From an uncultured Clostridia bacterium (GTDB lineage Bacteria; Bacillota; Clostridia; Oscillospirales; Oscillospiraceae), in the NCBI GenBank assembly GCA_947572235.1, contig CANPBB010000001.1, forward strand, positions 1,620 through 65,619: a stretch of 64,000 nucleotides of DNA. The letters are read 5' to 3'. The first letter of the stretch is position 1, and each line of letters begins with the position of its first letter. Shown here piece after piece: positions 4,651 to 52,345 of this stretch. The notes beneath the pieces were generated by a model that was not told where the DNA came from, searched no databases, and saw only the letters and a program-made list of their open reading frames with translations. The translations under genes were made by a program, and so were the position numbers.

Positions 4651-5738
4651 ACCCCGGTCACCTCCTTTTTGGGATAGAAGCGGTAGTTGAGCAGGCGGAT
4701 GCCGGTCTCCGCGCCCTCGCGGACCACGCCGTACTTGGCGGCGTCCAAGGCGTTCTGCTGGACGCGGAGCTCCTTGCCGCCTAAGGTGACGAAGTAGTCG
4801 TACTCGCTGCCTAAGAACACCGAGCGGGTGACGGTGACTTTCAGCGGGGAGTCTGGGTCAAAGACAATATCGTTGGGGCGAACGCCCACCTCTAAGGGTT
4901 CCTTGGTGCTGAGGCCCTGGGGCAGGGAGGCATCGGGCCAAGGGAAGCGCCCCCCCTCGGGCTTCAGGCACAGCGTGCCGCCCTCTGCCTCCACGGGGAT
5001 GAAGTTGGAGATGCCGATAAACTCGAAGGTGAAGCGGTTGGAGGGGCGGAGGATGATGTCCTCGTCGGTGCCGATCTGGCAGAGGGTTCCGTCGGGCTCC
5101 ATAATGGCCATGCGGTCGCAGAGCTGAAGGGCGGACTGCTGGTCGTGGGTGATGTAGAGGATGGTGGTGCCGCTCTTGCGCTGGATCTCCCGGATTTCCT
5201 CCAGCATCTGCTCCCGGAGCTTGGCATCCAGGTTGGTGATGGGTTCGTCTAAGACGATGATGCTGCTGTTGCTCACTAAGGCACGGGCGATGGCCACACG
5301 CTGCTGCTGGCCGCCGGAGAGCTGGCTGGGCAGGTGGTTGGCGTACTCGCTCATGTTGACGAGGGCCAAGGTGTCCTTCACCCGCTGGGCAATCTCCGCC
5401 TTGGCCACCCGCTTTTTCTTCAGGGGGTAGCCCACGTTTTCGCTGACGGTCAGGTGGGGCCACACGGCGTAGTCCTGAAAGACGATGCCGATGTTGCGCC
5501 GCTCCACCGCCATGTTGACGCGGCGGCTGGCGCTGAAGAGGCAGGTGTCACCCACGTAGATCTCGCCGGTCTCGGGCTTGTTCAGGCCCAGAAGGCAGCG
5601 GACCAGCGTGGTCTTGCCGCAGCCCGAGGGGCCCACCAGACAGAGGATCTCGCCGTCGGCGATCTCCAAGCTGAAATCCTTCAGGATCTGGTTGCTGCCG
5701 TAGCGAAAGGAGATGTTTTTGAATGTGACGTTTGCCAA
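4647..5738 (-). CDS. ABC transporter ATP-binding protein (second NBD gene of the operon)
   Basis: GPSGCGKTT, LSGGQQQR, VLDEP motifs. TTG start behind GGAGGG. Confidence 0.92.
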   Translation of the reverse strand: MANVTFKNISFRYGSNQILKDFSLEIADGEILCLVGPSGCGKTTLVRCLLGLNKPETGEIYVGDTCLFSASRRVNMAVERRNIGIVFQDYAVWPHLTVSENVGYPLKKKRVAKAEIAQRVKDTLALVNMSEYANHLPSQLSGGQQQRVAIARALVSNSSIIVLDEPITNLDAKLREQMLEEIREIQRKSGTTILYITHDQQSALQLCDRMAIMEPDGTLCQIGTDEDIILRPSNRFTFEFIGISNFIPVEAEGGTLCLKPEGGRFPWPDASLPQGLSTKEPLEVGVRPNDIVFDPDSPLKVTVTRSVFLGSEYDYFVTLGGKELRVQQNALDAAKYGVVREGAETGIRLLNYRFYPKKEVTGV

Positions 5739-5789
5739 AAGATTCCCTCCTTACTTTGGTGTTTCTCTGGTTGGGGATGGGAGCTTATA

Positions 5790-5935
5790 TACGTCTTGCA
5801 GGGGCGGGTACCACCCGCCCGCTCTGACGCAGCACACGGTACTGTCGTGCGGGCGGATGATATCCGCCCCTACAAGGTGTCGGGTCCCGTATGACAAGGG
5901 TGGGGAAACCAAAGGTTCCCCCACCCTCTGTGGGT
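5790..5935. repeat. REP-like GTAG/GCAG hairpin cluster between the SBP and ATPase genes
   Basis: TGCAGGGGCGGGTACCACCCGCCCGC (5797-5822); GGGCGGATGATATCCGCCCCTACA (5859-5882, opposite orientation); GGGTGGGGAAACCAAAGGTTCCCCCACCC hairpin. Confidence 0.7.
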
Positions 5936-49827: not shown

Positions 49828-51243
49828 TTAAAGGCTCTCATAGACAATTTTGTTCAGGGCGCTGATGTAGGCGCGGATGGAGGCGCCGATGATGTCGGTG
49901 GAGATGCCGTTGCCGGAGTAGAGCCGGCCGCCGGAGCGGAGCTTCACCAGCGCGGAGCCCATAGCCTCCCGGCCCTCGGTGACAGTCTGGATCTGGAAGT
50001 CATCCAGCTCGTAGTGGTGGCCGATGATCTGCTCGATGGCCAAAAACGCCGCGTCCACCGGGCCGTCCCCCATGCTGACGCCCTGGAGCTTCTTCCCGTC
50101 CCGCTCCAAGGTGATATTGGCCATGGCGGCCACCCGGTTGCCGTTAGTCACCACATACTGGTCGATCCGATAGGTGGACGGCACTTGGAAAGCGGAGGTG
50201 GCGACGATGGCCTCCAGCTCCTTCACCCCCACAAAGTGCTTCTTGTCGGCGATACGGCGGAAGGCCTCGTAGACCTTGGCGGTGTCCTCCTCACCGAGGT
50301 CATAGCCCATCTGCTTGACCACCTTGGCCACCTCGCCGATGTCGTCCCCGGCGCTGAGGCAGACCCCTGCCATCTCCTCCTGGACGCCGCTGTCGAAGGG
50401 GGAGGTGCTTGACCGCTCGTTCTGCATCCGCCACTGGAGCTGTTTGGCCACCCGCACCAGCTCCGTGGTGCGAAGGCGCGTCCGGATACCGCAGCTCTCC
50501 CCCCGCGCGGTGACGAAGGCGGCAAAGTCCTCCAGCAGCACCGTGTGCAGGGGACTGACGGTGGTCTTGACCACCTCGGCCCCGGCGGCCACCGCGGCGG
50601 CGGCGCAGGCCACGGACATCTTCAGCTCGTCGCTGAGCTCCACGCCGAGGCGCACCCGCTCCAGCGCCGGCGTGCTCTCCCGGAGGGTGCTGAGGAAGGC
50701 CTCCCACTCGAAGGGGGTCATCACCCCGGCGGTGTCACAGAGGGTGATCTCCTCGGCCCCGGCCTCCACCGCAGCGGTGAGGACCTCGCTGAGGAAGGCG
50801 CCCTCCGCCCGGGTGGCGTCCAAGGCGGAGAGGGCCACATGCTCGGTGTAGTACCGGGCCTTCCGCACCAGAGCGGCGGTGAGCTCCACAACGGCGGGCC
50901 CCTTCCTGTGGCAGAGGTACTCCATCTGGATGGCGGAGACGGGCATCAGCACCTGAAGGGCGGGGGACTTGGCGGCCTTCACGCTCTCCCAGGCCTCGGT
51001 GACGCTGTCCTCGCTCATCCCCACGCTGGCCATCACGGCGGCGGAGGCAACCACAGAGGCAATGGTCTTGTTGGTGAGCACATCGGCCTCCTGGCCGTCG
51101 GAGATGGGGGGCAGCTCGATCCGGTCCACGCGGAGCCGGTCCAAGGACCGGGCCAGCTCAATGCGCTCCTTAAAGCTCAGCGCCGCGGCGGACTGATTGG
51201 CCACCTCTCGGAGCGTGATGTCTGCAATTTGAATGGTTTTCAT
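49828..51243 (-). CDS. LeuA/CimA-family (HMGL-like TIM barrel plus LeuA allosteric domain) protein lacking canonical catalytic motifs
   Basis: Start MKTIQIADITLREV behind GAAGGAGA. DTAGVMTP. C-terminal LeuA-dimer-like GDGPVDAAF...GISTDIIGASIRAYISALNK. RDGEQ and HxHNDxG are not present. Confidence 0.85.
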   Translation of the reverse strand: MKTIQIADITLREVANQSAAALSFKERIELARSLDRLRVDRIELPPISDGQEADVLTNKTIASVVASAAVMASVGMSEDSVTEAWESVKAAKSPALQVLMPVSAIQMEYLCHRKGPAVVELTAALVRKARYYTEHVALSALDATRAEGAFLSEVLTAAVEAGAEEITLCDTAGVMTPFEWEAFLSTLRESTPALERVRLGVELSDELKMSVACAAAAVAAGAEVVKTTVSPLHTVLLEDFAAFVTARGESCGIRTRLRTTELVRVAKQLQWRMQNERSSTSPFDSGVQEEMAGVCLSAGDDIGEVAKVVKQMGYDLGEEDTAKVYEAFRRIADKKHFVGVKELEAIVATSAFQVPSTYRIDQYVVTNGNRVAAMANITLERDGKKLQGVSMGDGPVDAAFLAIEQIIGHHYELDDFQIQTVTEGREAMGSALVKLRSGGRLYSGNGISTDIIGASIRAYISALNKIVYESL

Positions 51244-51264
51244 AGGGTGTTCTCCTTCTCTGAT

Positions 51265-51581
51265 GAAAAATAAAAGCGTCCCAAAGACAGAACATACTGT
51301 CTCTGGGACGATAATGGACATTACCGCGGTACCACCCGGATTTGCGCCAAAGGGCGCACACTTATGGGACTCCAGCAAGTCCCTGCCTCTGATAACGGGG
51401 GCCTCCGTGGCCGCCTACTCGCTGGGCGCGCCGCGCCCGCTTTGGGGGACCCTGCTCCAGTGCCAGCCGCCAGACTGCCGCTCCCGGCTCGCACCACCCG
51501 CCGGTTCTCTGAAAGCTGACAAACGTCTGACATAACACCTTCTAAGCATGATATCTTTATTATTTCGGGTTTTGAGGGAAT
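51265..51581 (-). promoter_or_regulatory. T-box riboswitch leader
   Basis: Minus strand has AGAGA, GGGUGGUGCGAGCC, CCCGUUAUC (F-box-like), AAAUCCGGGUGGUACCGCGG (T-box core, 51343-51324), and terminator hairpin CGUCCCAGAGACAG...CUGUCUUUGGGACG plus a U-run. Confidence 0.8.
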
Positions 51582-51587
51582 GTAGGG

Positions 51588-51616
51588 ATTTTACCACACG
51601 GGGTGGAGGCTGTCAA
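51588..51616 (-). promoter_or_regulatory. Sigma-A-type promoter of the T-box leader
   Basis: Minus strand reads TTGACA, 17 nt, TAAAAT. Confidence 0.6.
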
Positions 51617-52345
51617 GAGGGTTTTTTGTGGGGGGGGAGGTGCCCGGCAGGGCACGGTGCTTTTTTCGCGCCGCCGCGGCGCGATTTGGGGACGGGGGTT
51701 TCGCCCCCCGGGGCGACCTGCTTTTCTCGCACGAGAAAAGTAGGCAAAAGCGCGCTTAGGTGTCCGCTCAGGCGGGCTTTAGCCCCCCGCAGGGGGGCAC
51801 AGCCCTGATTCGCGTCCCCCTAAGAACCCCAAGACGCGGCGCAGCTTCGGTAGACTGGTGCGTAGGTTTACTGCGAGCTTCGGACGCGGCGGCGGTAGCT
51901 CTCGCAAAGCAGATGGTACTGGCGAGCGTCCCCCCGTCTTTAGTCCTGCTATAAACCGCCGCTGCCGCTCTGCCTGCCTCGCTTCGACTTGCCTCCGAAA
52001 CTTGAAGGTGGTTTCGCTGTTCGTTGTGCGGCAAATGCCGCCGTACTTGCCGATAATTGTTGTTGTTACGCAAATCTCCGTAGGGCGCGGCAACCCGGCG
52101 CGCCGTTCTTCGTCCACCGGGATGCTCCAACAAACCACCCGTAGGGGCCGGTGTCCTCACCGGTTCACCCCCTAACACCCACCGCACCTCCAATACACCG
52201 TCCCCCGTTAATCGGAATGCTTCGGTAAAACGTGTGTAGGGGCGCACATTGTGCGCCCGCTCTATCGACGCCCGCCGCACTGGGAAGGACAGGCGCACTG
52301 TCCCCGCCGGCTGGGGTGCTCCGATAAGCCGTCCCATATGGCCGT
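51617..52345. repeat. Gene-free array of GC-rich hairpins / REP-like units, including a roughly 300-bp mosaic element
   Basis: CGTAGGGCGCGGCAACCCGGCGCGCC (52079-52104), CGTAGGGGCCGGTGTCCTCACCGG (52140-52163), TGTAGGGGCGCACATTGTGCGCCCGC (52235-52260). 51745-52050 matches 59591-59893 in inverse orientation. Confidence 0.75.

Follow-up and report, generated by a model that had tools for sequence, protein, structure and literature searches.

The LeuA-family gene at 51243-49828 on the minus strand of the window (the whole 64,000-nt stretch of DNA that was analysed, from an uncultured Clostridia bacterium) is preceded by what is very probably a transcriptional T-box riboswitch of class I with specificity for tRNA-Leu. 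The assignment is carried by the anatomy of the leader, its codon register, conservation and covariation among orthologous leaders, a matching tRNA and agreement with the discriminator base of that tRNA. A sequence-only reading of the same DNA had called a T-box leader whose specifier, left unresolved but resembling that of glycine T-boxes, did not obviously match a Leu/Ile-type downstream gene. The leader call was borne out by a full-length match to the Rfam T-box model RF00230 (E = 4.2e-18). The specifier, in turn, is the leucine codon CUG, which fits the downstream LeuA-family gene, and the reported mismatch disappears.

Anatomy of the leader

The curated Rfam gathering score for RF00230 is 93 and the leader scores 84.7 bits; a default Rfam scan of the window therefore reports no T-box. 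Searching the whole genome with RF00230 returned the same leader (E = 6.3e-19) among 14 T-boxes, four of which reach 93 and ten of which score below it. The genome is GC-rich, and a score below 93 is typical of its T-boxes. The features of the leader and of the genes behind it are listed in the order of transcription, with the basis of each call.

51616-51588, minus strand: sigma-70-type promoter TTGACA-17-(TG)TAAAAT, 11 of 12 consensus matches
51553-51301, minus strand: T-box leader, RF00230 model positions 1-219, 84.7 bits, E = 4.2e-18
51548-51451, minus strand: Stem I with K-turn, Specifier Loop, hinge, AG bay and distal loop (model and orthologue alignments)
51535-51532, minus strand: Specifier Loop, 5' side, class consensus YUAW, never AGUA
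51531-51525/51475-51469, minus strand: helix GUCAGAC/GUCUGGC directly above the Specifier Loop, covarying in the genus
51510-51506, minus strand: AG bay AGAGA, invariant in 51 aligned leaders
51499-51489, minus strand: distal loop GGGUGGUGCGA, tRNA-elbow platform; flanking 5-bp helix 100% paired, with 4 covarying pairs
51479-51477, minus strand: GGC of the sequence-only reading, in the hinge/internal loop and not the specifier (model alignment)
51466-51464, minus strand: specifier codon CUG (Leu) (model alignment, calibration on the genome's T-boxes, orthologues)
51462-51459, minus strand: 3' strand CACU of the 4-bp basal helix, separated from the codon by G51463
51452-51409, minus strand: Stem II with an AGUA S-turn element, capped by the GC hairpin 51438-51424
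51438-51424, minus strand: GC hairpin GGGCGCGGCGCGCCC, apex of Stem II, an insert in the model's Stem II loop
51407-51393, minus strand: Stem IIA hairpin and F-box, invariant within the genus
51398-51393, minus strand: F-box CCGUUA, read from the sequence
51383-51366, minus strand: extra linker hairpin GGGACU-UGCUGG-AGUCCC between F-box and Stem III, an unmodelled insert in RF00230
51358-51343, minus strand: Stem III, UGCGCC-CUUU-GGCGCA (model alignment)
51343-51324, minus strand: T-box core AAAUCCGGGUGGUACCGCGG (sequence and model alignment)
51340-51302, minus strand: antiterminator helix containing the T-box bulge UGGUACC of 7 nt, -9.5 kcal/mol
51334-51331, minus strand: bulge UGGU, which would pair with tRNA ACCA-3'; UGGU in 64 of 64 orthologous leaders
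51310-51277, minus strand: intrinsic terminator, 14-bp stem, -25.2 kcal/mol
51275-51266, minus strand: terminator U-run, about 20 nt before the SD
51257-51252, minus strand: SD AAGGAG, with the ATG at 51243
51243-49828, minus strand: first gene, 471-aa LeuA-family protein with HMGL-like and LeuA_dimer domains
49827-49606, minus strand: intergenic spacer of 222 nt with GC-rich hairpins
49605-47143, minus strand: second gene, 820 aa, in which a xylose-isomerase-like TIM barrel is fused to an AMP-forming acyl-CoA ligase

In a scan of 51000-51900, TTGACA-17-TAAAAT was the sole promoter-like site. As aligned to the model, Stem I runs from the K-turn through the basal helix GGUG/CACU, the Specifier Loop and the helix CAGAC/GUCUG to the hinge loop, the helix GCU/AGC, the AG bay and the distal helix and loop. 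Much of this had been picked out correctly from the letters alone: the promoter, AGAGA, the distal loop, the F-box, the T-box core and the 14-bp terminator with its U-run all lie where they had been placed, and the hand-folded helix GUCAGAC/GUCUGGC is real. The sequence-only reading had also described, between Stem I and the F-box, the insertion of a REP-like hairpin. The hairpin sequence is present at 51438-51424. Nevertheless, it forms the apex of Stem II, and a REP element was ruled out, as the hairpin occurs once in the 2.6 Mb genome. Such a long apex is limited to this genome and its closest relative, and apex length varies within the genus; as judged by this comparison, the lengthening is lineage-specific.

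Linker hairpins akin to the one at 51383-51366 (…GGCUUGYUGGAGCC…) recur in the corresponding position of many T-boxes, both in this genome and in related ones. None of these hairpins between F-box and Stem III is covered by the Rfam T-box model.

The strand 51310-51302 is common to the antiterminator, as its 3' strand, and to the terminator, as its 5' strand. Compensatory changes preserve the terminator stem in four same-genus leaders. The SD is not sequestered, and control is therefore at the level of transcription. From the promoter at 51616-51588, transcription would start some 35 nt ahead of Stem I. The AG-bay/distal-loop platform of Stem I is predicted to dock the tRNA elbow while CUG is offered to the anticodon CAG. 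With uncharged tRNA-Leu bound, the free ACCA-3' end would pair with UGGU and stabilize the weak antiterminator, allowing read-through into the operon. With leucine-charged tRNA, the much stronger terminator (51310-51266) would form and transcription would stop some 20 nt short of the ribosome-binding site. Falling leucine charging would thus switch on the two-gene operon of the LeuA-like protein and the TIM-barrel–acyl-CoA ligase. For tRNA-dependent antitermination itself, we infer this course from the established T-box mechanism.

Specifier codon and tRNA partner

The RF00230 alignment sets GCGG-CUG-G immediately 5' of the basal 4-bp helix. To calibrate the register, the other 13 T-boxes of the host genome were read, nine by model alignment and four by hand. 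In the nine aligned leaders, one base stands between the triplet and the basal helix, and the triplet is consistent with the UGGN bulge under the discriminator rule. Listed as triplet and bulge, these are GUC and UGGU (Val), UAC and UGGU (Tyr, two leaders), AAC and UGGC (Asn), AUC and UGGU (Ile), UGG and UGGC (Trp), GGC and UGGG (Gly, upstream of glyQS), GUA and UGGU (Val), and ACC and UGGA (Thr, upstream of thrS). The hand-read leaders carry AUC (Ile), UUC (Phe), UGC with UGGA (Cys, upstream of cysE) and GCC (Ala). CUG at the calibrated register, together with UGGU, therefore indicates leucine and a tRNA with A73. That a CUG triplet lies here, a few nt downstream of the GGC, had already been noted in the sequence-only reading.

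Orthologues of the downstream gene were found in many Clostridia, among them Candidatus Pelethomonas, Oscillospiraceae, Acutalibacteraceae, Lachnospiraceae and Christensenellales. An RF00230 T-box was detected upstream of 14 of the 15 orthologues examined, the exception being L031, and CUC or CUG stands at the specifier register in ten orthologue alignments among those listed. Same-genus leaders scored 92-110 bits. The T-box core is present at 64 of the 75 loci with sufficient upstream DNA, each with UGGU, and all 64 leaders (about 75 species) have a leucine codon, CUC or CUG, at the register.

The codons were also read with a codon-agnostic parser, anchored behind the distal loop because the GAGC inside that loop otherwise yields false GGU or GGC "codons". 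It returned CUC in 43 leaders, CUG in 11 and no other triplet; the ten leaders that it left unparsed have CUC or CUG by other readings. Applied to a second, neighbouring T-box behind the operon, the same parser gave AUC at 17 loci, which shows that the method has no bias towards CUN. CUG occurs in 8 of 8 same-genus leaders, and lower-GC relatives mostly have CUC.

Base changes in the orthologues support the fold. Within the genus the helix above the Specifier Loop also takes the forms GCCAUAC/GUAUGGC, GUUCUGU/ACAGAGC and GUCCUGC/GCAGGGC. In a Stem I alignment of 51 leaders, admitted only if their 4-bp basal helix was fully paired, 95% of helix cells are paired and two-sided changes occur in 10 of 14 tested pairs. 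Shifting the partner columns lowered pairing to 22-38%. The distal helix, on which no selection was made, is 100% paired and has four covarying pairs.

There is no AGUA/GAA S-turn in the Specifier Loop; UUAU stands on its 5' side and only GG precedes the codon. In the orthologous class the consensus is YUAW on the 5' side and WGU ahead of the codon. The W positions covary, UUAU going with AGU and UUAA with UGU, which suggests one additional base pair. Codon presentation may accordingly differ from that in solved T-box structures. Streptococcal glyQS T-boxes are a precedent for a Specifier Loop without GAA and with an altered AGUA (PMC11404447), and several further T-boxes of the host genome also depart from AGUA/GAA; for these reasons the loss of the S-turn is regarded as a variant detail and not as a new kind of T-box. 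Both the streptococcal leaders and the present one lack the GAA signature (PMC11404447), whereas amino acid, replacement sequence and lineage are different. In addition, unlike in the streptococcal glyQS T-boxes, the variant loop is a conserved trait of one orthologous leader class spread over many Clostridia. The class shows, in nature, a Specifier Loop that looks operative although it has no canonical S-turn.

Leucine tRNAs of the host genome end in A-CCA, and both of its glycine tRNAs end in U-CCA (U73). The UGGU bulge would pair with A73 of tRNA-Leu, and the CUG codon is fully complementary to a CAG anticodon. ARAGORN found no tRNA-Leu(CAG) in the assembly, which is 87% complete. Absence of the gene was ruled out, as it is truncated at two contig ends: its first 52 nt, including the anticodon loop UUCAGGU, lie at the ends of contigs C125 (1-52) and C28 (25392-25444). 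Of the 11 other genomes of the genus, 10 encode one to three copies of tRNA-Leu(CAG), and a near-identical relative has the complete gene with A73-CCA. The assembly seems to be interrupted at tRNA genes that occur in several copies.

Other readings of the leader were weighed against leucine specificity. In a glycine T-box, GGC at 51479-51477 would be the specifier and tRNA-Gly would be sensed. The triplet is where the sequence-only reading had put it, its GAGC-GGC-A context superficially resembles GAA-GGC-A, and a tRNA-Gly(GCC) is encoded in the genome. Nevertheless, relative to the helix 51531-51525/51475-51469, GGC is on the wrong, apical side: it falls in the hinge loop and not in the Specifier Loop. 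The triplet is GGA in two same-genus leaders and is not conserved elsewhere, and UGGU would face U73 of both Gly tRNAs. Glycine T-boxes upstream of glyQS share the general Stem I architecture and the T-box core with the present leader. They are without Stem II, however, have GGC at the register and pair with U73 through UGGA, or UGGG in the host's own; the present leader, unlike them, has Stem II, CUG and UGGU. The true glyQS T-box of this genome shows UGGG with GGC at the normal register, and the genes downstream of the present leader have no relation to glycine. Both the RF00230 covariance alignment and the orthologous leaders place CUG or CUC in the Specifier Loop, an outcome that by the sequence-only reading's own account speaks against glycine, and a glycine specifier can be practically dismissed.

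It is also highly improbable that a shifted register in the true loop replaces or joins CUG, giving another or a dual specificity. In this genus the loop GG-CUG-G does hold the overlapping triplets GGC (51468-51466, Gly) and GCU (51467-51465, Ala). tRNA-Ala(GGC) likewise has A73, so that the discriminator alone leaves alanine compatible with UGGU, and a larger-loop T-box answering two tRNAs has been cited (PMC11404447). Outside the genus, however, the same positions read GUC and UCU and thus other amino acids; CUS alone codes for one amino acid across all 64 leaders. The one-base spacing between codon and basal helix holds in the genome's other T-boxes, and U73 of the Gly tRNAs argues against GGC. 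Decay of the T-box, leaving a constitutive terminator or an inert relic, is very unlikely. It could be read from the score, which at 84.7 bits falls short of the gathering score of 93, and from the loop without AGUA/GAA. Against it, all functional elements are intact, same-genus orthologues score 92-110 bits, and there are published cases of functional T-boxes lacking GAA (PMC11404447). The S-turn-less loop has its own consensus and covariation in several Clostridia families, which implies selection and therefore argues against decay. Leucine specificity of a functional switch is the reading retained.

The regulated operon

The 471-aa product of the first gene scores far below every LeuA cut-off. 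Compared with Neisseria LeuA (3RMJ), TLRDGEQ is replaced by TLREVAN and HCHND by ELSDE, and the GERAGN segment is deleted. The metal ligands are lost (RD to RE, HxH to ExS) and the allosteric LeuA_dimer domain is kept. From these residues, activity as a 2-isopropylmalate synthase is improbable. The gene is thus no ordinary leuA, and the biological reason proposed below for its control by leucine is tentative.

The ligase domain of the 820-aa fusion belongs to a PRK12583-like subfamily. A TIM-barrel–ligase gene follows the LeuA-like gene at 78 of 80 loci, in most of them after a gap of about 0-20 nt. No promoter or terminator was predicted in the 222-nt spacer 49827-49606, and the second gene is likely to be co-transcribed.

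Three runs labelled RNA-Seq contain the locus (X2, X3 and X5) and show a flat, DNA-like depth of 8-10x, over genes and spacers alike. These are mouse-gut "METAGENOMIC RNA-Seq" runs, and the organism is a mouse-gut bacterium that appears in many studies.

Eleven orthologous operons are without a T-box. At six T-box-less loci (L076, L083, L085, L088, L089 and L090) a consensus promoter is followed by a conserved AT-rich element, AATATTTTGCACAATTTAATTTCC. This element lies about 60-130 nt upstream of the start of the LeuA-like gene and is a palindrome resembling a CodY box; it would be an alternative control linked to branched-chain amino acids.

Canonical LeuA (TIGR00973 above cut-off) was found in 1 of 22 operon-bearing relatives versus 13 of 39 relatives without the operon (Fisher p = 0.011). 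Strict mutual exclusion of operon and canonical leuA was ruled out by the one relative that has both. Searching the genus for leuC gave no match above the TIGR00170 cut-off, which is little informative given that this model describes the long bacterial type. Shorter LeuC-like genes occur in some members of the genus, and none was found in the present assembly. Elsewhere in the same genome (C18:24974-25996, minus strand) lies a second, shorter HMGL-like/LeuA-family homologue that is conserved across the genus. It scores 112 bits to TIGR00973, through the N-terminal domain only, adjoins a LeuC-like gene in one relative and is a candidate citramalate, homocitrate or isopropylmalate synthase.

The Bacillus subtilis ilv-leu and leuS leaders, known from the Grundy and Henkin literature, use the Leu specifier CUC and are attenuation T-boxes with Stems I, II, IIA/B and III, an overlapping antiterminator and terminator, and UGGU facing A73. 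Transcription attenuation, a leucine codon, the UGGU/A73 match and a LeuA-family gene under control are common to them and to the present leader. The codon here is CUG, in a GC-rich genus, as against CUC in most orthologues. In the Specifier Loop, YUAW/WGU (here UUAU/GG) stands instead of AGUA/GAA, and the apex of Stem II is lengthened and an extra linker hairpin is present. The genes differ as well: a LeuA look-alike that lacks the catalytic metal ligands, together with a TIM-barrel–acyl-CoA ligase, takes the place of the ilv-leu enzymes.

Sister T-boxes and branched-chain acids

Two further T-boxes of the same genome lie on contig C7, minus strand, one with AUC (Ile) at 5541-5799 (L011) and one with GUA (Val) at 2109-2365 (L009). 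Each is upstream of a gene of about 750 aa that encodes an HTH-cupin–AMP-ligase fusion. Counting the Leu T-box, there is one ligase locus for every branched-chain amino acid. In 17 species an AUC T-box with an MbcS-like HTH-cupin–ligase gene lies directly behind the Leu operon (L070:9926-12583, L110:9917-12597 and 15 others). A SAM riboswitch (83.9 bits) was observed on contig C118 of the same genome (L004:1893-1986), about 170 nt from an Ile (AUC) T-box and on the opposite strand.

The best NCBIfam match of the C7 ligases is MbcS, a branched short-chain acyl-CoA synthetase, at 433-439 bits against a cut-off of 850. MbcS of Staphylococcus aureus is such a synthetase and feeds fatty-acid synthesis (PMC10026030, PMC11167679). 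The match points to an action of the sister T-box-controlled ligases on branched short-chain acids. Compared with MbcS, the ligase behind the Leu T-box is of another subfamily and is fused to a TIM barrel. A literature search of incomplete coverage found no link of MbcS to a T-box. Nor did it find a T-box tied to isovalerate or to branched-chain acid ligases, and with such coverage this is weak evidence of novelty.

The Leu T-box may belong to a set of three sister switches (Leu CUG/CUC, Ile AUC and Val GUA), each in control of an acyl-CoA ligase gene in gut Clostridia. We propose tentatively, as a possibility that we do not favour over its failure, that these ligase genes are the activation genes that have long been sought for a salvage route. 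By this route isovalerate, 2-methylbutyrate and isobutyrate would be converted to leucine, isoleucine and valine via their acyl-CoA forms and reductive carboxylation. The LeuA look-alike, taken as catalytically dead, would then be a leucine-binding partner of the ligase, and the Leu member would be recognizable by its S-turn-less loop. That the operon serves to supply leucine from isovalerate is a hypothesis that the facts fit but do not prove.

The switch itself is a textbook one, and settling its specifier removes an apparent anomaly. As a functional label conserved in dozens of gut and rumen Clostridia, the Leu T-box marks an uncharacterised operon as one called for when leucine charging declines. 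The Ile and Val sister T-boxes, with their MbcS-like ligases, lead to a similar view. Together they give a testable lead on branched-chain amino acid supply in anaerobes that are mostly without a canonical leuA.
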